63,933 bases of DNA, filler included, from Basidiobolus ranarum (GCA_040143965.1; 46 parts of 46 records of this genome joined end to end with filler, not necessarily neighbours in it), one strand, 5' to 3'. Shown: positions 2,796 through 62,547, counted from the whole stretch's first letter. Notes: generated from the sequence alone by a model not told the origin. Translations and numbers: made by a program.

Positions 2796-3123
2796 TGAAT
2801 AGGGAATATACTGTGGCAAGTTTGAGAGTTGGGGTGTCAGGGACTACAAGGACCAATACAAAGAGGGATGATGAAAGGATGATGTAACAATGATCGGGTG
2901 ACCTTCCATGGAAGGTCTTGGTGGAAATACACTATGTGGGGGATGATGTGATTGGTTAGGCTTCATGGAATGTTCCAAAGAACATGACTTCCATCTAAGG
3001 TAATCTAGATGAACTAACACCAGATTGCCCAGAAGGGATGGCACAGCAGATATGATGTCATAATCTAATAATAGAAGAGTTCTATTTGCAGTGGATCAGT
3101 ATGCCAAGATCAGAATCATGACA
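2796..3123 (-). mobile_element. LTR family A (TGTCA...TGACA, gypsy-like), partial
   Basis: Reverse strand begins TGTCATGATTCTG at 3123; homologous to 9779-10293, 13967-14359, 33473-33561 and 58488-58933. Confidence 0.8.
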
Positions 3124-5489: not shown

Positions 5490-5884
5490 NNNNNNNNNNN
5501 NNNNNNNNNNNNNNNNNNNNNNNNNNNNNNNNNTTAATTAATTAANNNNNNNNNNNNNNNNNNNNNNNNNNNNNNNNNNNNNNNNNNNNAACACATTGTG
5601 TATGATGAAAGACCTAGTTGGCTACACAAGCCAGTGCAATTTAACATGGGAAAAAGCCATATAGAACTGTAATAGATCAAAGTTTGTTGAGAGTGTGAAG
5701 ATAGTAGCTGTAGTAACATATTAGAGCTACTTATGTACTGACTTCTCAGCTTGCTGCTAGAAAATATTGGCAGTTTAAAAACCCTAGATATCACCAGCTT
5801 TGAAACTTTAGTCACAGTATGACATGCTTTTGCAATTGCCTAACATCATAGGTAACAGGCATTAGGTGCATTGACACAAAATAT

Positions 5885-6232
5885 TGTTAAAATTGGGCAA
5901 ATAGCATGTCAATATTTATAGTTTGTTTGTTTGTATTCTGATTATTTAGCACAGAGTTCTGCCATTCAACAATGTGCGTTTATAGCTCTAGATGATAAAA
6001 ATACCAATTAGATCACCTTTATCTATTTTCACTATTTTCTCAAAAACTCACCAAATCACCTCAAATTTTCACACATGTTTAACAGACGTACTTGTTATGA
6101 TCTAAGTATGTCCAATATTCCCATGTCACAGTAAACTCTAAATAGGACAAATTCAATTTAATAAAGCTTAAGTGTCTGATTCACAAAAAATCTTGTTCAA
6201 AACACTTCCAAATGCCCTAAACACTTTTATCA
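5885..6232 (+). mobile_element. Solo copia LTR, family C (348 bp)
   Basis: TGTTA...TATCA termini with perfect 5-bp TSD AATAT (5880-5884 / 6233-6237). Confidence 0.9.
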
Positions 6233-6327
6233 AATATGATGGGAGGCAACAAATTGCTTCAATCTTTATGGAAGTAGCATGTATTGTGAGTAGAATTTTC
6301 AATCATTTTTAAAATGGTAGCTAAACC

Positions 6328-6679
6328 TGTTGAAATTAGGTAAATAGCAACTCATTATTTAGTAGTTAGTTTATTCATAGTATGTTTATTTAGCACTTAA
6401 TTCTGTCATTCAAAAATGTGTGTTTATTGCTCTAATCGATGGAAATATCAGTTAGATCACTTTTACCAATTTTCACTATTTTCTCAAAACTTCTCCAAAT
6501 CACCTCAAATTTTCACCCATGCTTAACAGGCATGTTTGTTATGATCTAAGCACATCCAATAATCCTTTTTCATAGTAACCTATAAATAGGACATATTCAA
6601 TTCAATAAAACTTAAGTGTCTAATTCACAATTCCAAGTTTTGTCCAAAACACTTCCAAATCCCCTAAACACTTTTATCA
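6328..6679 (+). mobile_element. Solo copia LTR, family C (352 bp)
   Basis: TGTTG...TATCA, flanked by AAACC/ATACC (4/5 TSD); homologous to 60626-60967, which is followed by PBS and gag. Confidence 0.88.
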
Positions 6680-8128
6680 ATACCATGAAAGGTTTGATCA
6701 TTACAGTTTAGGCCTGGCCCACATCTTTAAAGTTAGCTTTCACTACCACAGCTCAGTAATCAACACCAAAAATTCAATCATCACTTATAATGCAGGCTTG
6801 ACTAAATATAATTGTCATTTTGCCAGCAATGATTTGACAAATTTCAGTGCAGGCATCCACATTGCAGTTGTGGGCCATTCTTTTGCNNNNNNNNNNNNNN
6901 NNNNNNNNNNNNNNNNNNNNNNNNNNNNNNTTAATTAATTAANNNNNNNNNNNNNNNNNNNNNNNNNNNNNNNNNNNNNNNNNNNNATGATGACCTCCAT
7001 GTCATACACTTGCATTGAATTCTCTTTCCCTATTGATATGTATAATAATCCTTAGAGCTATTGAATTACAAATACTAGAATTGAATGCTATCTACTGATT
7101 CTCGATTCTTCCGTGGGTTAACATCATTTTTTGTCTGTTGGTTGGTTCTCAATTGGTTCACTGTATCTATTCATACGTTACGCAGAGTATACTCTGGTGC
7201 GGTATTTAACGCACCTTGTCTACAACAATTGCCTTGTCAACCAAAAGTCTCTGATCCAGAAATGCAAGCATGCACAAATTAGAAAAGCATAATCTGGATT
7301 GTATATTATTCTCAAACTATTAGATAACTACTGTTGTAACTTAGACATGTTTATATTCAATACAATGTTAATAAAGCATATTACTTCCTCTTTGTGATGA
7401 GTTGGATTCCTGTGTACTAATAGGGATATATAGTCTGCTAGGCTGGTAACTTCGACATAACTTTAATATATCCCTCCAGGGAGGGAACAACCATCTTTGG
7501 TTACTATCTTCGATGCCTAAAAAAGCTTAAACTTGTTAGTATGGTAAAATAGATACGATAGGGTGATAGTATTTACTGTCAAAACAACTTAAATCCAAGG
7601 TTTCGAAACGTATGCTGAAGACCGGATACTTGGAGATAAGATATCCTATTATAACCAATTAATCCATTTTGTAATTGGTCATGGCTCAATCGGTTATGGC
7701 TTCCTCAAAATGTTCAAGTGAGTTGTGATGATTTTACTGCAATAAGAAAAGGCCTACAAACAAATGCGCAATTAAACCATAATTTATTCAGATGCGGCAA
7801 AACATTTTGAATCATCCACTTGAAATATAAATCCTGGGTAAGTATTCTGTCGGATCGCCATATACGAAAAATACTACCCCAAATGGTGCATGATAGAAGA
7901 GTGTTGGGAAATTCTCTGTCTTCGCTATAGATAGCGACCTGATGAAGAAAATATTCCTATGAAGTATCGGACCACTCATGATCGGCTGGTTAATTCGGTC
8001 AGAAATTCTGAATGATCATTTTCCATCGGTACGGAGCTAAAACCTTCATTGAAGTTTATTTACTATAAATACTGCCTTATCTCTGAGTTATACATTAGAT
8101 TTTTATTATCTATTCTCTCAGTCTTACG

Positions 8129-11174: not shown

Positions 11175-12470
11175 CATAGCAAGTTTGAGAGGCTGTCTTC
11201 GATTGGTCTCCTGGTTTGATTCTTACAAGATTGTAAGCACCTGTTGGATTGCTCTTTGTAAACACCTTGGCTGAAGCAAGCTGGTCCAAGAGTGAGTTAA
11301 TTAATGGCAAGGGGTACCAATTTTTGACTGTAATGCTATTTAGGCCTCGATAATCAACACAGAGATGGAGGGATCCATCCTTTTTCTTAACAAATAAGAT
11401 TGGAGAGCCTGCTGGGGACTTTGAATGTTGGATAAATCCTTTCTCCAGATTTTCTGCAATATACTCTTTCAGAATGTTGAGTTCTGGCTGAGTTAGCCCA
11501 TATATAGGCCCAAATGGTGGTTGTTTTCCTTCTTGTAGATCTATAGGGCAATCATATGGGTGGTGAGCTGGGAGTATATCAGATTTCTTCTTGTCAAAGA
11601 CATCAGCAAAGGCTTGGTATTTGGGTGGGAGCTTATGAACCATAGGTTTTGTTGGTTTCAGCTCTTCAGCAATACTGTCAATGGATATTGGCTTTATAGA
11701 TGTTTTTAGGAGTTGGGCTGGTGATGAGTTGGATACTTGGCAGGTTGGCAAATATGGACTAAGAGGTGGAGTTTGCTTGAATATGATAATCTTCTTCTTC
11801 CAATTGATTACTGGGTTGTGCTGCATGAGCCATGAGATACCAAGGATGACTGGGTGGTGAGGTGAAGAAATGATATTAAAGGCTATTTCTTCTTGATGAG
11901 CAGTGGACATGAGTGTAATAAAGGTTGTCTTATGTGTTACAGCAGCTGATGATAGCAGCCTTCCATCAATTACTTCTACAAGGACTGGACTAGATTTCTT
12001 GATTGTTGAGATAGAGTGGCTTTTACAAAGGCAGTGTCAATAAAACAGGAGGAAGCACCTGAATCAAGAAGTGCAGTTGTTTTTATTGACTTGAAATTTG
12101 GTAGCAGGAGTGTAATGGGCAGCTTTAATGATTGGTATGACTACAGAGATTGTGATGTATGGTGAAGGTACATTTTTGAAGATGGTTTGCCCAACTGTGT
12201 GCCTATTATTGCAGCTGGGTGTTGAAGTTTTCCAAGGATTGGGAAGAGTTCTCTTCTACTTGCATATTGTTGATCTTAAATTCAGGATTTTTTTTTAGAC
12301 ATGTTCTAGCTACATGTCCAGGAGCTCCACAATAGAGGTATAGTTTCTCTTGTTAGCATCAATATTTCTCCTGAGAGCTAAGCTTTCTGAAGTGAGTTCC
12401 ATCAATTTGCATTGGTTGATCAGCTTGAGCTGTATTTTGTGTTTGATTGAAGGGAGGTCTGAAAGTAGAT
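11175..12470 (-). pseudogene. Ty3/gypsy gag zinc knuckle - protease - RT fragment
   Basis: LYCGAPGHVARTC, ALLDSGASSCFID, PAGSPILFVKKKDGSL.LCVDYRGLN. Confidence 0.92.
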
Positions 12471-14789: not shown

Positions 14790-14908
14790 AATAGTGGATT
14801 GCTATACTGCTCATAATTAGATCTTCTGTCCTTGCTAGTTTTTCTTCTTTTCTGCTAGCAGGCTGTTGCTTGGAAGCCAATTCTATACTAGATCAGAGAT
14901 ATTTATCA

Positions 14909-15097
14909 TGTTGAAATTAGGCAAAAAGCAACTCATTATTTAGTGTTAGTTTATTCATATTTGTATTATTTAGCACTCATTTCTGCCATTGAAAAATGTG
15001 TGTTTATTGCTCTAATTAATAGAAATACCAATTAGATCACTTTGAACAATTTTTACCATTTTCTCAAAACGTTTTGAAATCACCTCATATTTTCACC
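14909..15097 (+). mobile_element. Copia LTR family C, truncated
   Basis: TGTTGAAATTAGGC start; then fused to copia internal DNA homologous to ~62110-62270. Confidence 0.8.
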
Positions 15098-15361
15098 GGT
15101 GATTGGTCAGAAAATTATTGCCTTGTTTCTGAGCCCAATTTCCTGATGCATGATTGGCTGGAAAAATATCCTTTTTCTGATTACCATATTTTTCATTGGC
15201 AGAGATAATATGCTGATTTCCAGAAGCTGGTTCCAAATTATCAGTATCCTCAGAGTAATTANNNNNNNNNNNNNNNNNNNNNNNNNNNNNNNNNNNNNNN
15301 NNNNNTTAATTAATTAANNNNNNNNNNNNNNNNNNNNNNNNNNNNNNNNNNNNNNNNNNNN

Positions 15362-43211: not shown

Positions 43212-43961
43212 GTGAAATTAATCAAAATTTCATCCAATTTGGCCCAAAATGACTCAAATCAAAGCCAGTAGTTCCCTTATCAATCCATGGTGGGTAGTTT
43301 AATGTATACCATGGTTGGGACACATCCAGACATTGCTGTGGCAGTAAGAACTGTCAGTCAATATCTCAAAAATCCAGGATCTGAGCACAAAACTGCAGTA
43401 AAATAAAAGTTCTGGTATTTGAGAGGAACTGTAGATCTAGTTCTGGAACACTCTGCCACTCCTGATGCATGCAATTTTGAAGGCTACAAAGATGCAGACT
43501 GGGGAAGAAACCTTGATGATAGAAGATGAACAACTGGGTACACTTTTCTCAATGGTAATGGAGCCATAACTTGGAATAATAAGGAGCAACCAACTGTAAC
43601 ATTTTCCACTACAGAAGCAGAGTGTATTGCTGCCTCAGCTACTACACAAGAAGCTATGTGGTTAAGGAAGTTATTTACAGACTTACGATGCATGCCAAAA
43701 CATGCTATTAATGTATTTGCAGACAATCATAGTTGTATTTCATTAGTTAAAAACCCAACATTTCATGCTAGAACACAACATATAGATATTAGGCATCATT
43801 TTGTTAGAGAAGCAATAGAGAATGATATAATTGAACTTGTCTATTGCGTAATGAAGAAATGATAGCTGATATCTTAACAAACCTTTAGCTAAAGCACAAT
43901 TTGAATTATTAAGTTATAAGTTAGGTTTAAGAGAAATACAAAGTAATTAGTTAAGTGGGAA
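43212..43961 (+). pseudogene. Ty1/copia RT-RNase H 3' end with PPT
   Basis: DADWG, STTEAE, NPTFHARTQHIDIRHHFVRE; PPT AGTTAAGTGGGAA. Confidence 0.92.
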
Positions 43962-44235
43962 TGTTGAAATTAGGTGAATAGCAACTCATTATTTAGTAGT
44001 GAGTTGATTCATATTCAATTATTTAGCACTCAATTCTGTCATTCAAAAACATGTGTTTATTGCTCTAATTGATAGAGATATCAATTAGATCAGTTTTACC
44101 AATTTTCACTATTTTCTCAAAACTTCTCCAAATCACTTCAAATTTTCACCCATGCTTGAGAGGCATGTTTTTTATGATCTAAGCATGTCCAATAGTCCTA
44201 TCTCATAGTAAACAATAAATAGGACATATTCAATA
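43962..44235 (+). mobile_element. Copia 3' LTR family C, interrupted at ~44235
   Basis: TGTTGAAATTAGG start directly after the PPT; homology stops ~75 bp before the normal TATCA end. Confidence 0.88.
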
Positions 44236-44259
44236 TGGAAAATATTTAGGGACAAATAT

Positions 44260-44332
44260 TGGTCTGGCCAGGATTTGAACCTGGGACCTCCTTCACTCTA
44301 GCAAGGAGCTCTAACCACTGAACTACCAGTCC
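44260..44332 (-). ncRNA. tRNA-like sequence (73 nt, anticodon position AGA, short variable loop); probably pseudo-tRNA or tRNA-derived element
   Basis: GGACTGG TA GTTC AGTGGTTA GAGC T CCTTG CTAGAGT GAAGG AGGTC CCAGG TTCAAAT CCTGG CCAGACC A. Box A and box B are intact; mismatches at 3:70 and 31:39. Confidence 0.8.
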
Positions 44333-44601
44333 TTTTATGCTATGCCTATATTGCTAGGGAACCTTAACCTAGTCTGTCAATGTATGATACTTTGGCATTT
44401 CAGCTATACAAGCAACTGATTGGCCTTAGACTTTGTGTCCAGATGCAGTCACCATACTCCATATTTTCCTCTTTGGGATTTACTGCTTGTACCACAAGTC
44501 ANNNNNNNNNNNNNNNNNNNNNNNNNNNNNNNNNNNNNNNNNNNNTTAATTAATTAANNNNNNNNNNNNNNNNNNNNNNNNNNNNNNNNNNNNNNNNNNN
44601 N

Positions 44602-51549: not shown

Positions 51550-52836
51550 AACTCACTAATGCTTCCAACAATACTTCGAAGCTGTTGGCAATCTGCTGAG
51601 CATAGTGCTTCGATATCAAGCTGCTAACTGCATCCAAGTAATATGTGATCTCACTATTACCCACATTCACGCTCAAAGTTAAAGGATACTAAGATAAAAG
51701 TATTGTTAGATATTTGTCTATAATGTAATACAAATATTTTCGTAAAACACTACTCCATGACTTACCTCAGTAGCTTCGTTTCCTTGAATCGGAACAAGCT
51801 TAAATTCACCTTCATCATCGATTTTATCTTTGGGTGTTTTTGAGTGTTCTTTCTGAGTAGATGAGTTGACTCTATAGTTGATTATACTGTCGAATAAAGG
51901 AGATACCCCCACCCATTCTTGAATATCACGTAAGCTACTTTGCTGATAAGACAGTGCAAATGTGTAACTTTCATGGATTTGCAAAAGTAACTCAGCAATG
52001 GTAGTTTGGTTATCACAGAGTGTACGACTTGGAAGAGTATTGATACAAGGGCCGACGATGGTTGAAACACCCTCCAGATCTCCATTTCGTCCATTGAGCA
52101 CATAGCCAAACACCACATCATTACTTTGAGTATACTCTCGCAACAGAATAGCCCAAGCCGCCTTGATCAGTGTAAATGCGGTTACATGAAGTTGCTGAGC
52201 GCATTGTGATATCCTCTCGACCGGTAATTGTATGGATCTAGCAATTTGATTCCTTGTTGGACCCGACTCCTGAGGTGCTCCAAGACGGGGGATAAAGGCC
52301 CTACTCAATTGTGCGAACTTATTCAGCCAATAATATTTTTCTTTAGCAACGTCATCTGAGGTTTTACTATAAATTTCTTCCACGAACTTTGCGAAAGGGT
52401 ATAAGGAAACACGTGGTTCACCATGATATACATCATGAAAGTCTTGTTGGACTAGTTCCCACGATGTAGCATCAAGAATAGCATGATGCCAATTGACGAG
52501 CAGCAATCGATACTTCTGCCCTGTTTCAACTATTGAAAATCTCAAAGTTGGTTCACCCAAATGGAATGTATTGGCTTTATCAGTAGTTAGGTACTTGGTA
52601 ACTGTCTCACGAAGCGAGTCGTAATCACACTTGATGTATGTCCAGTCTGGCTTATACTTTTTTAGTACTACTTGCATAAAGTTAAAGCAAGATACACTTG
52701 TGGGGGACTCCACAAAGATTGTCCGCAGGATTGGGTGATCGCGAAGAATAGTCTCCCAAGTGCTTTCAAACTTGATAAGATCAAAATCGCCAACAAGTTC
52801 AAACTGTTGTTGAATGTGATAATAGTCCGCATCCTT
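51550..52836 (-). CDS. Nonribosomal peptide synthetase condensation domain, internal fragment; exons 52836-51766 and 51688-51550
   Basis: RDHPILRTIF, catalytic WHHAILDATSW, AAWAILL, DVVFG...NGR, VGPCINTLP. A 77-bp intron at 51689-51765 (GTAAGT...TTAG) joins EATE|YPLTL in frame. Confidence 0.92.
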
Positions 52837-54325: not shown

Positions 54326-55613
54326 CTGAAGTCATGTACTGTCTGCACACAATTGGGAATCACTGAATCAGGTAAATATTGTTCATATTTGGCTTACATA
54401 CCATTGATTCCCTGCCTCAACATTTTGATGAAATCACCCTAATATAGATCATTGATCCAATACCAAAGTACTCACCATAAAGCTGATGGTATTACTAATA
54501 TACTTGATGGATATCACTACAAGAATTTGAAAAGTCAAGGTTTCTTTCAAAACATGTATGATCATGGAATTGCATTGGCTCTGGATGGTTTCTTGCTAAA
54601 CAAATATACCTTTGGAAAGGCTTGCTGGCCAATAATTTTAATTAACTTATATCTTCCTCCTTCTGAATGGTACAAGAGTCATAATACTTTGATACTATCC
54701 TTGATATCTGTACCTAGATCACCAGTTCTTATAGATACCTTCTTGGAGCCTTTGCTTGCAGAATTTGAACAGCTATCTAATGGGGTTTAGATGGGTGAAT
54801 GTTTTATCAAAGCCAATATCATTGTATATATTGGTGACACTCCTGCCATCAGTACACCGGGAGGTTTTTGTGGGCACAATGCACTATCTTGCTGTAGATT
54901 TTGTCAAATCAATGGAGTTTACTCTATCAGGCATACACATTCCAGCTGTCCAAATTCAAAACTAAACTCCATGATTTTACTGTCAAGAGCCTGGGCAGAT
55001 TTCAGCATGATCACTGATATCAATTCACCAAATAGTCAGTTCAACATCAAGCTTGGTGTTAGCCATAAGCCTAAGATTCTATTGCTAAAGGACATCAGCT
55101 GGAGCCAAAGCTTCCCATTAGGCACTATGCACTTGCTATTTGACAATATTTCAATACCACTTATTCAGCTATATAGTGGAAAATTCAATATGAATGAGCC
55201 ATTTGAGATAGGATCAAAGTTTGATTCAATTGGGAAAAAACTTGAAAAGGTCAAGATAGCATCATGTTTTACCTGGACTCCTATCAATATCCACTCATCT
55301 AGGCATTTATTCAAATGCAAAGACTAGAAATGTTGGATTTGCATATATTTAAGTGGAATCTTGAAAAGATTTCTGCCTGACAAGTATTGGCAACATTGGG
55401 AGTTGTTTATGGATATTGTTGATATATTCTTATGGCATCAGCTCACATTGGCAGATACAGCAACTGTGCAAAGATGTTGTAATGGATATGAAAAACTTTA
55501 TTACAGGTTTAAAGAACATAGACTGAATCTATGCCAGTATTCAATACATTCCCTGCTGCATCTTTCACAATGCTTAGAGATTATAGGCCCTTGCTATACA
55601 TTCTGGGAGTTCC
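54326..55613 (+). pseudogene. En/Spm (CACTA) transposase core (Transposase_21/tnp2)
   Basis: ALALDGF...CWPIILINLYLPP...PRSP.LIDTFLEPL..E...L..G; GDTPA...GF.GHNA...CRFC; FPLGTMHLLFDNI. Confidence 0.9.
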
Positions 55614-58487: not shown

Positions 58488-58933
58488 CAAGACAAGACTG
58501 GACAAGGAAGATACTTTGGCAAGAATCTTTATTGATAACTGGTGTTGATCAGACTGAGGTCTGATCAAGGAATACATGGGGCTTATATAGATATTGCAGA
58601 GTGAAACGTAATATACTGAATAGGGAATATACTGTGGCAAGTTCCAGTGTTAGGGTGTTGGAGACTACAAGGACCAATACAAAGAGAGATGAGGTAAGGA
58701 TGATCTGGTGACCTTCCATGGAAGGTCTTGGCAGAAATACACTATGTGTGGGATCACATGATTGGTTAGGTATCATGGAATGTTCCAACAAACATGACTT
58801 CCATATAAGGTAACCTGGTTGAACTAACACAAGATTGCTGAGAAGGGATGGCACAGCAGATGTGATGTCATAATCTAATAATAGAAGAGTTCTATTTGCA
58901 GTGGATCATTATGCCAAGATCAGAATCATGACA
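58488..58933 (-). mobile_element. LTR family A, partial
   Basis: Terminus ...CAGAATCATGACA at 58933. Confidence 0.8.
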
Positions 58934-60625: not shown

Positions 60626-61161
60626 TGTTGAAATTAAATAAATAGCAACTCATTATTGAGTACTTACTTTGTTAATATTCAGATTATTAAGCACTCAATT
60701 GTGCCATTCAAAAACATTTATTTATTGCTATAATGAATTGAAATATGAAACAGATCACTTTTATGGATATTGACTATTTTCTCAAAATTTCTCCAAATTT
60801 ACACCCATGCTCAAAAGGCAAGTTTGTTATATTGTAAGCATGTCCTATAGCTCTACTTCATAGTAAGCTAGAAATACAACATATTCAATTCAATAAAACT
60901 TAAGTGTCTAATTCATAAATCCAAATCTTGTCCAAAACACTTCCAAATCCCCTAAACACTTTTATCAGGTTATGAGCCCCAAGCTAGCTGTTAAAGGAAT
61001 GTCTACCAGTACTATTACCAACATTTTTGCATCCACAGAGAAGTTTGATGGTGAAGACTTTCACCTTTGGAAGTTCAAGATGCAAATGGTGCTAGAAGAC
61101 AAGGACCTTTGGGGATTTGTTACAGGAGAAGAAATAGAGCCAAAGGGACCACCAGAAGCTA
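60626..61161 (+). mobile_element. Copia 5' LTR family C (60626-60967), PBS (60968-60979) and gag start (60972)
   Basis: TATCA|GGTTATGAGCCC; EKFDGEDFHLWKFKMQMVLEDKDLWGFVTG. Confidence 0.92.
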
Positions 61162-61261: not shown

Positions 61262-62547
61262 CAATAGTGTAATTTTGATGTATCTGCATTCCAAGACAAT
61301 ATGCTAGTGATCCAAGATCTTGCATTTCACACTCTGTAGATAGGCAGGTCTTAGTTTGTTGCATCAAATTTGTGCAATTACTAACTATTATGATATCATC
61401 AACATAGAATGTAATTAATCCCTCTAGTTGACCCATGTATATATCTTCATCAATTTCTCCATTAAGAAATGCTGTCTTGACATCCATTTGTTCAGTCAGC
61501 ATTCCTTGATGGGTAGCAATGGCTAGGATTACTCTGATTGAGGTAAACTTAGCAACAGGAGAAAACTTTTCATCATAGTCAATCCCATGTTCCTGATCAT
61601 GGCCTTTTACTACTAATCTTGTTTTGTACTGGTTGATAGATCCATCCAAATTAAGTTTCAGTTTCAGCACTCATCTATTACCAATAGTTTTTCTTCCAGT
61701 AGGTAAGTTCACAAGGATCCATGTACTATTCTTGATTAGGGAGTGAATTTCATCATCAGTGGCTTTTCTCCATTCTGTTGCTTCATAAGATTTCACAGCT
61801 TGTGTCAAATATTCTGGTTAAGAAAATGCTATATATGTAGTTATTTTCCACCTTTCTTCTGAATTGATTCTGCTAATTTCATGCTCTGATTTGAGATATC
61901 CAAAGTCCTTGGTAGAATGGTCAGATGTTTCACTTACAGGATGTTTCTGATTTCCACTTGGTAGGATTTCTGAGACCTCATTGCCTTAAAGTTATGATTA
62001 ATTAAATACTTGTTGTGATTGATTACTTTTTCCAATAACTGATTGCATACTTCCAATAATTGATTGCATCCAATTCCAGCCAAATTGAGAGTAAATATTT
62101 TTTAGGTATGTGATTGGTCAGATAAGTATTGCCTTGTTTCTGAGGCCAATTTCCTGATTCCTGATTGGTTAGAAAATATCCTTTTTCTGATTACCATATT
62201 TTTCATTGATAAAGATAATATACTGATATCCAGAAGTTGGTTCCAAATTATCAATATCCTCGGAATAATTATTTGGTTTCTGATATAAATCAGTGCATTT
62301 CCAGTGCTGCCTAATAGTTGACTACTTGTATAGCTGCTTGATTCCAGAATAGCATGTAATAGTTTGTTTTGCTTGGTTTCAGTACTCATAGTGAAGTTTG
62401 AGACAGGATTATTGCTTGTTGGTTTTCTACTAGAAATGTTCACCACAGGGATTGGCAGTGAATTGAGCTTTGTCATATCATTATTGGTGGCTGATGTTTT
62501 AGATCTTGTCCCAGATGTGATATTTTCTAAATTTGGATAATGTTGAT
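61262..62547 (-). pseudogene. Ty1/copia INT-RT spacer and RT fragment
   Basis: YKTRLVVKG; FSPVAKFTSIR; QMDVKTAFLNG; YVDD with an internal deletion. Confidence 0.9.

Follow-up and report, generated by a model that had tools for sequence, protein, structure and literature searches.

The 266-nt segment at positions 44236-44501 of the window (the whole stretch of 63,933 nucleotides that was analyzed) carries a decayed tRNA-like sequence close to the point at which the segment interrupts a dead copia element in its 3' LTR. With about even confidence, we interpret this segment as the 3' LTR of a decayed TRIM of the Helenus type (TRIMp3) that is nested in the 3' LTR of the copia element, and the 3' part of the TRIM that is present here would most likely consist of the whole 226-bp 3' LTR plus the polypurine tract (PPT). 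The initial annotation of this DNA had proposed an LTR 3' end that contains an internal Pol III promoter, and this is the interpretation that the anatomy of the segment supports best, namely the CA at the break, the purine tract followed by TG, and the location of the tRNA-like sequence near the 3' end, although it is unproven. In contrast, the suggestion of a possibly undescribed fungal TRIM family was an overstatement. Elements of this kind have already been described as Helenus/TRIMp3 (PMC10886601), and thus novelty would be confined to the family and possibly to the lineage of the host.

Composition of the window and CpG depletion

The window comprises 46 contigs, sorted by descending size from 1298 to 1286 bp, which are connected throughout the window and at regular spacing by 45 identical 100-bp linkers of the form N44-TTAATTAATTAA-N44. 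The contigs have thus been joined artificially, so that neighborhood across any linker means nothing, and features near a linker are cut by the end of their contig. The tRNA-like segment belongs to a contig of 1290 bp (43212-44501), which is mostly repeat, and one of the artificial linkers, which has no strand, splits it at 44502-44601 from an unrelated contig. Because the linker begins at 44502, the gene beyond it is unrelated to the tRNA-like segment, a point that had been overlooked in the initial annotation. Past this linker, an exon resembling formate/nitrite transporters was found (Pfam PF01226, 32.4 bits, slightly below the cut-off).

The majority of the contigs have a G+C content of 31-41% and a ratio of observed to expected CpG of 0.00-0.21 and are repeat-like; a few contigs, with ratios of 0.6-0.94, are gene-like. 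In the neighboring gene-like contig, 46 CpG dinucleotides were observed versus 48.8 expected. The respective numbers are 2 versus 23.6 for the copia side of the contig under study (43212-43961), 0 versus 11.7 for the 266-nt segment, and 0 versus 5.0 for its tRNA-like part. The DNA upstream of the tRNA-like part had been described as CpG-free over 170 bp; the lack of CpG is real (0 versus 6.5 expected in 169 nt), and the stretch to which it applies stops at the contig end at 44501.

A dead copia element with an interrupted 3' LTR

The contig begins with the C-terminal part of a copia-type pol on the plus strand (43212-43862), which was recognized by translation and protein matches and is dead, its translation being interrupted prematurely by three stops in frame, at 43269, 43404 and 43527. 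The 110-aa open reading frame at 43530-43862 yielded 90 protein matches at E<=1e-10, mostly to long proteins, and the matched proteins mostly carry the domains PF07727, PF00665, PF14223 and PF13976. The copia stop is separated by about 90 bp from the purine tract AAGTGGGAA (43953-43961, plus strand), which, according to sequence and alignment, is the polypurine tract of the copia element and is located immediately 5' of the 3' LTR. This LTR, denoted LTR-C, begins with TGTTGAAATT and was delimited by blastn and alignments to 43962-44235 on the plus strand. Blastn against the other contigs revealed five further copies of LTR-C on four contigs, with identities of 78-93%. Three of the copies are full (6328-6680, 5885-6233 and 60626-60967), have a length of about 353 bp, and end with ...TTTTATCA; these copies, with their TGTTGAAATT start and ...TTTTATCA end, identify LTR-C as a TG...CA LTR.

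The copy that starts at 43962 stops after CATATTCAAT. Its homology extends to 44234, which corresponds to position 274 of about 353, the base at 44235 being ambiguous, and the missing 79 bp or so comprise TCAATAAAACTTAAG...TTTTATCA. The bases of LTR-C that adjoin the junction are CAATA (44231-44235, plus strand). The interruption of LTR-C at 44236, which had been noted earlier, was thus confirmed, as the alignments to the full copies stop at 44234 and unrelated DNA follows.

The truncation of LTR-C at the junction means that the junction was not made by the integrase of the copia element. Retroelements that target tRNA genes are known, for example, Ty1/Ty3 in yeast and TRE/DGLT-A in Dictyostelium (PMC5006619, in the part available to us), and the contig shares with them an LTR element beside a tRNA-like gene; however, targeted integration leaves a complete LTR, whereas the LTR in this contig is devoid of its last 79 bp or so. 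A copia element that had targeted a tRNA gene was therefore ruled out, as the adjoining LTR is truncated.

The junction could also stem from a deletion or from an assembly error in the 1.29-kb contig. With respect to the latter, it seems highly improbable that the junction at 44234-44236 reflects a chimera of the assembly, in which a short-read assembler would have connected a fragment of the copia LTR with unrelated DNA that contains a tRNA pseudogene. The contig, with its 1290 bp, is indeed one of many small unplaced contigs that consist mostly of repeats, but the two sides of the junction have no repeat in common that could have misled the assembler, and the loss of CpG is equal on both sides.

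Several of the other LTR-C copies deserve mention. The copies at 5885-6233 and 6328-6680 (contig 5590-6886) are 82% identical and are arranged head to tail, 94 bp apart, so that the LTR/spacer/LTR arrangement at 5885-6680 could be a TRIM-like derivative or a tandem array of LTRs. The copy at 14908-15105 is cut after about 190-199 bp and runs into another repeat, which is shared with 62110-62271, showing that repeats in these contigs are commonly nested or truncated. Directly after the copy at 60626-60967 lies GGTTATGAGCCCC (60968-60985). A PBS of the GGTTATGAGCCCC type opens most of the internal sequences of fungal Helenus elements in the available passages of the supplement of PMC10886601, and it has been attributed to the anticodon loop in tRNA-iMet (PMC10886601). 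Judged by its sequence, a copia element with LTR-C and GGTTATGAGCCCC is a possible type of autonomous partner within the window.

The tRNA-like sequence

The 73-nt cloverleaf at 44332-44260 on the minus strand, which had been recognized in the initial annotation, is real, as it was both called by ARAGORN and matched by the Rfam model RF00005. ARAGORN reported it as the sole tRNA of the window (Ser, anticodon AGA), and the RF00005 match (51.7 bits, the gathering score being 29; with the whole window as the search space, E 3.5e-08) is the only match in the window that reaches an Rfam gathering score; further tRNA-like Rfam matches in the window were absent at E<=10. The cloverleaf has a decayed class I body. 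As had been described, the cmscan alignment features a variable loop of 5 nt (AGGUC), a perfect T stem and two stem mismatches, A3:A70 and G31:G39, so that 2 of the 21 stem pairs are broken. The anticodon loop is CTAGAGT. Box B (GGTTCAAATCC) contains GGTTC, and in the box A region (TAGTTCAGTGG) the motif TAGTT...TGG agrees with TRGCY...YGG at four of five positions, with C replaced by T. A B-box scan of the window with at most one mismatch yielded seven matches versus 4.2 expected, and the other six are not accompanied by a box A.

A long variable arm is the main identity element for seryl-tRNA synthetase, and tRNA-Ser is a class II tRNA. Being without a long variable arm, the copy is not a working tRNA-Ser, and the earlier statement that it is not a normal Ser tRNA holds in view of the 5-nt variable loop and the two mismatched pairs. 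Furthermore, the minimum-energy fold of the naked RNA is not the cloverleaf (z -0.84), and 37 of 200 shuffled sequences fold equally well. The lack of CpG, the non-cloverleaf minimum-energy fold and the missing long arm clearly indicate that the tRNA-like sequence is not a healthy tRNA gene. A live but unusual tRNA, i.e., a class I tRNA that reads UCU or a mis-sense tRNA, which was hit by the copia element by chance, would be compatible with a score of 51.7 bits versus a gathering score of 29 and with boxes A and B that are near consensus. It is nevertheless extremely improbable, since the 2 broken pairs out of 21, the absence of CpG where about 5 are expected, the deviating fold and the lack of the long variable arm all argue against it, as does the truncation of the adjoining LTR, which makes the junction something other than an integrase product.

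A weak antisense match of the tRNA-like sequence to the Rfam family Plastid-ycf2 (21.4 bits) is regarded as meaningless; it is accounted for by prokaryotic-looking metagenome tRNAs with the same D- and T-arms (see below).

A candidate LTR around the tRNA-like sequence

Along the minus strand, the segment is made up of 27 nt, a purine run, TA, TGGAG, 124 nt, the 73-nt tRNA-like part, and a 24-nt tail. The 27 nt (44475-44501) represent a candidate internal region, which is ended by the end of the contig. The purine run is AAAGAGGAAAA, 11 purines at 44474-44464, located 2 nt ahead of TGGAG; with the subsequent TA, it forms a PPT-like tract (44462-44474) just 5' of the candidate LTR. The candidate LTR extends from 44461 to 44236 and thus has a length of 226 bp (TGGAG...TTCCA), with TG...CA ends and the terminal inverted repeat TGGA/TCCA. 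Its boundary at 44461 is suggested by the sequence, i.e., by the PPT-like tract together with the TG...CA and TGGA-TCCA termini, and its putative U3-like part would comprise 44333-44461. The tRNA-like part occupies positions 130-202 of the candidate LTR and is followed by the T-rich tail ATATTTGTCCCTAAATATTTTCCA (44236-44259, 24 nt), which includes a TTT and a TTTT run and has CA at the junction. It had been correctly stated that the segment ends 24 nt past the tRNA-like part in ...ATATTTTCCA at 44236. The whole 266-nt segment is non-coding; stops interrupt all six frames, and a similarity to proteins was not found within the window. As the contig extends for only 40 nt upstream of the candidate LTR and covers one side of the insertion, it shows neither a second LTR, which would lie past 44501, nor a PBS or a target site duplication (TSD).

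The frequency with which such an arrangement arises by chance was estimated with 20,000 dinucleotide shuffles of the 169 bases upstream, which were searched for a purine run followed within 3 nt by a pentamer that starts with TG and matches the end at four or more of five positions. The test was devised after the pattern had been seen, so that the following figures flatter it: the pattern occurred in 125 of the 20,000 shuffles for runs of at least 11 purines, in 301 for at least 10, in 518 for at least 9, and in 1057 for at least 8.

Two other delimitations of the element were considered and rejected. If the PBS were located at TGGTACAAGCAG (44494-44483, TGGTAC), the internal region would have only about 33 nt, and the seven preceding bases, TGACTTG, are unlike the end of the candidate LTR. 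An LTR start at TGTGG (44496) would be without a PPT, and its flank is not LTR-C.

An alternative that has to be weighed against this anatomy is that the tRNA-like sequence formed the head of a minus-strand SINE2, and that the body and tail of this SINE2 either were lost in a rearrangement of the copia LTR region or are located beyond the copia element. tRNA-related SINEs do exist in fungi, with the AfuSINE2 families in Aspergillus fumigatus as an example (PMC5063351, in the part available to us), and a tRNA-like head that contains a Pol III promoter with boxes A and B and has no plausible tRNA function would fit an element of this type. However, a SINE starts at the tRNA head and runs 3' into the body and tail, so that the insertion should begin at the 5' end of the tRNA-like part with LTR-C upstream of it, whereas the 169 nt upstream are without homology to LTR-C. 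The element-like DNA ahead of the tRNA-like head measures at least 129 nt, as against only 24 nt behind it, up to a CA end at a break that has neither an A-rich nor a simple-repeat tail. In addition, there is no other copy in the window. A SINE2 origin is therefore regarded as improbable.

Searches for further copies

When the segment at 44236-44501 was compared with the other 45 contigs (about 58 kb), no matching contig was found. Blastn with a word size of 7 against the 45 contigs returned only matches at chance level (E>=0.79), nhmmer with the 266 nt against the contigs returned only the self match, and a six-frame tblastn of the 266 nt against the 45 contigs yielded nothing below an E value of 0.045. 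The missing second copy is weak evidence either way, about 58 kb being a tiny sample of one genome.

A scan of metagenomes with a pattern reaching from the D-arm to the variable loop, in which the anticodon and the flanks were left free, gave 0 loci. With the D-arm and the T-arm fixed and the anticodon arm free, the metagenome scan gave 87 loci, none of which is related. They represent 37 distinct tRNA sequences, mostly with the loop CTCATAA and in some cases with CTGATAA or CTTATAA, which have acceptor stems of the GGGCC type and look prokaryotic; neither GGACTGG nor CTAGAGT occurs among the 37. These tRNAs, which were forced by the pattern to share 35 positions, are identical to the cloverleaf at 42-54 of 73 positions, leaving aside two that end at the end of their record and score 18 and 44.

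Comparison with Helenus and other known elements

TRIMs that bear a tRNA were named Helenus/TRIMp3 in a study entitled 'Helenus and Ajax' (Kojima 2024, Biology 13:119; PMC10886601), and within the limited collection of papers that was searched no further primary description of Helenus was found. Fungal Helenus elements are TRIMs whose LTR contains, close to its 3' end, a tRNA-like sequence that includes a box A of the form TRGCY...YGG and a box B of the form GGTTC (section 3.5); they have 5-bp target duplications and are apparently mobilized by copia elements (PMC10886601). In rust fungi (Pucciniales), 113 families have been described, and a few were found in the Agaricomycetes Agaricus, Coprinopsis and Amylostereum; most of the hundreds of genes for tRNA-Ser-AGA, Thr-AGT, Ala-AGC and others that have been predicted for the genomes of rusts represent LTRs of Helenus (PMC10886601). 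According to the available passages of Table S1 and the supplement, the LTRs of fungal Helenus elements are 116-274 bp long, and in their consensuses (8 + 3 + about 12) the tRNA-like part is located close to the 3' end and precedes a tail that measures about 16-46 nt, includes T runs and ends in CA or TA; some of the internal regions finish in purine tracts (...gagggggaata before tgt...) (PMC10886601).

The segment resembles these elements in its overall organization. Its tRNA-like sequence includes boxes A and B, has the sense orientation, and is located close to the 3' end of a candidate LTR, and the length of the latter, 226 bp, is within the range of 116-274 bp given in the available passages. 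As in these passages, the tail (24 nt) is T-rich and has a terminal CA, and a purine tract is located just before the start of the candidate LTR. The segment is non-coding, it resides in a genome in which copia elements employ a PBS of the iMet anticodon-loop type, and it is called as tRNA-Ser-AGA by a tRNA finder although its body is without the long arm of tRNA-Ser. In an alignment made by eye, the cloverleaf agrees with Helenus-1_AmAr from Amylostereum at 58 of 74 aligned positions, a value that is favored by selection, this being the best of about 40 consensuses in the available part of the source. The features shared with the Helenus-1_AmAr consensus given there are the anticodon AGA on a class I body, the AGGTC loop, acceptor arms that agree at 6/7 and 6/7 positions, and A73. 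In comparison, the tRNAs from the 87 metagenome loci, although forced to share 35 positions, attain only 42-54 of 73. In addition, the loop CTAGAGT is, by eye, identical to the anticodon loop of Helenus-6_CroRib as it appears in the same passages.

There are also differences. Only one truncated copy with a candidate single LTR was seen here. The candidate LTR starts with TGGAG, whereas nearly all Helenus LTRs in the available passages start with TGT; its PPT is A-rich, whereas most fungal PPTs in these passages are G-rich (AAGGGGG); and neither U3 nor tail has a similarity to the consensuses given there that would be evident by eye. Furthermore, the host is probably neither a rust nor an agaric, in contrast to the fungal range given for Helenus, which comprises Pucciniales plus Agaricus, Coprinopsis and Amylostereum. 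The sole clue to the host is an NRPS fragment whose best named relatives belong to Basidiobolus ranarum (see below), which suggests an early-diverging fungus similar to Basidiobolus.

The comparison also bears on the strongest of the alternatives, namely that a normal nuclear tRNA gene died in place, was silenced and lost its CpG inside repeat-rich methylated DNA, while the LTR lost its last 79 bp, together with the intervening DNA, through a deletion or other rearrangement. This course of events appears unlikely. In its favor, the segment is a single copy in all data searched, it has an A/T-rich upstream sequence (AATATAGGCATAGCATAAAA) and T runs 5-20 nt downstream like real tRNA genes, and truncated repeats are common in these contigs, as exemplified by the LTR-C copy at 14908-15105. 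However, it would require several coincidences, namely the CA at the break and a PPT with TG 226 bp upstream, which was found in 0.6-2.6% of the shuffles. A further coincidence would be the class I body with AGA and the CTAGAGT loop, features that are also present in Helenus consensuses. In addition, the upstream 169 nt are CpG-free like transposons (0 versus 6.5 expected).

If the segment is a TRIM of the Helenus type, as we prefer to assume, the element would lie on the minus strand, and its insertion would have divided the 3' LTR of the copia element at position 274 of about 353. By analogy with the published biology of Helenus and Cassandra, boxes A and B of the 5' LTR would recruit Pol III, and the transcript would run from the tRNA-like head via weak T runs, the PBS, a short internal region, the PPT and U3 to the 3' LTR. 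Reverse transcriptase and integrase of a copia element would then copy and insert the element in trans, generating 5-bp target duplications. The PBS of such an element would probably be similar to GGTTATGAGCCC or TGGTAGCAGAGC. The present copy is a relic, as every CpG has been lost by a methylation-type decay, like in the neighboring repeats, and two stem pairs are broken.

A further step, which is doubtful at present, would be to regard the segment as the first trace of a Pol III-promoted TRIM of the Helenus type in an early-diverging, Basidiobolus-like zoopagomycete, with a head that is related to the one of the Agaricomycete family Helenus-1_AmAr. An age of about 130 My has been proposed for the rust lineage (PMC10886601). 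Should the further step be true, fungal Helenus elements would be far older than about 130 My, or they would have moved between distant fungi together with their copia helpers. Confirmation would add a new host lineage to a recently described class of mobile elements whose promoter is borrowed from a tRNA, and it would mean that 'tRNA-Ser-AGA' calls with a short variable loop in this genome are transposon relics and not genes, as was shown for rust fungi (PMC10886601). No new mechanism is opened, and the single, decayed and truncated copy is mainly a pointer for the annotation of repeats.

Cassandra, a plant TRIM with a Pol III promoter derived from 5S rRNA in its LTRs (PMC10886601 and PMC10853983, in the parts available to us), is comparable in that an internal Pol III promoter that stems from the gene of a small RNA resides within the LTR of a non-autonomous element. 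It differs in its 5S origin and its plant lineage, whereas the segment carries a tRNA-like sequence, and no match to 5S rRNA was found in the window, neither at the Rfam gathering score nor at E<=10.

Observations on other contigs

The fragments of gypsy and copia elements in the window have mostly metagenome matches; the few named matches originate from amphibians, ferns, insects and a plant, and rust fungi are not among them. For a gypsy-type pol fragment at 11176-12036 on the minus strand, the best named matches are from Ascaphus, Phyllobates, Pristimantis, Aquarana and a fern, with identities of 43-59%. These amphibian and fern matches could be due to contamination of the respective assemblies by a gut fungus or to horizontal spread.

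Matches to the Rfam family SNORD81 below the threshold were obtained at 58849-58916 and at 3039-3106 on the minus strand (29.1 and 28.1 bits, respectively, versus a gathering score of 50). Both lie in contigs that have a repeat family in common and probably arose by chance inside a repeat.

For the open reading frame at 54791-55327, a Pfam search gave no match. A 372-aa open frame at 51721-52836 on the minus strand encodes a condensation domain of the NRPS type (PF00668, 159.9 bits). Among the named relatives, two proteins of Basidiobolus ranarum rank first with identities of 45-47%, followed by others with 27-31%, and the nearest Atlas clusters are all bacterial condensation-domain clusters.
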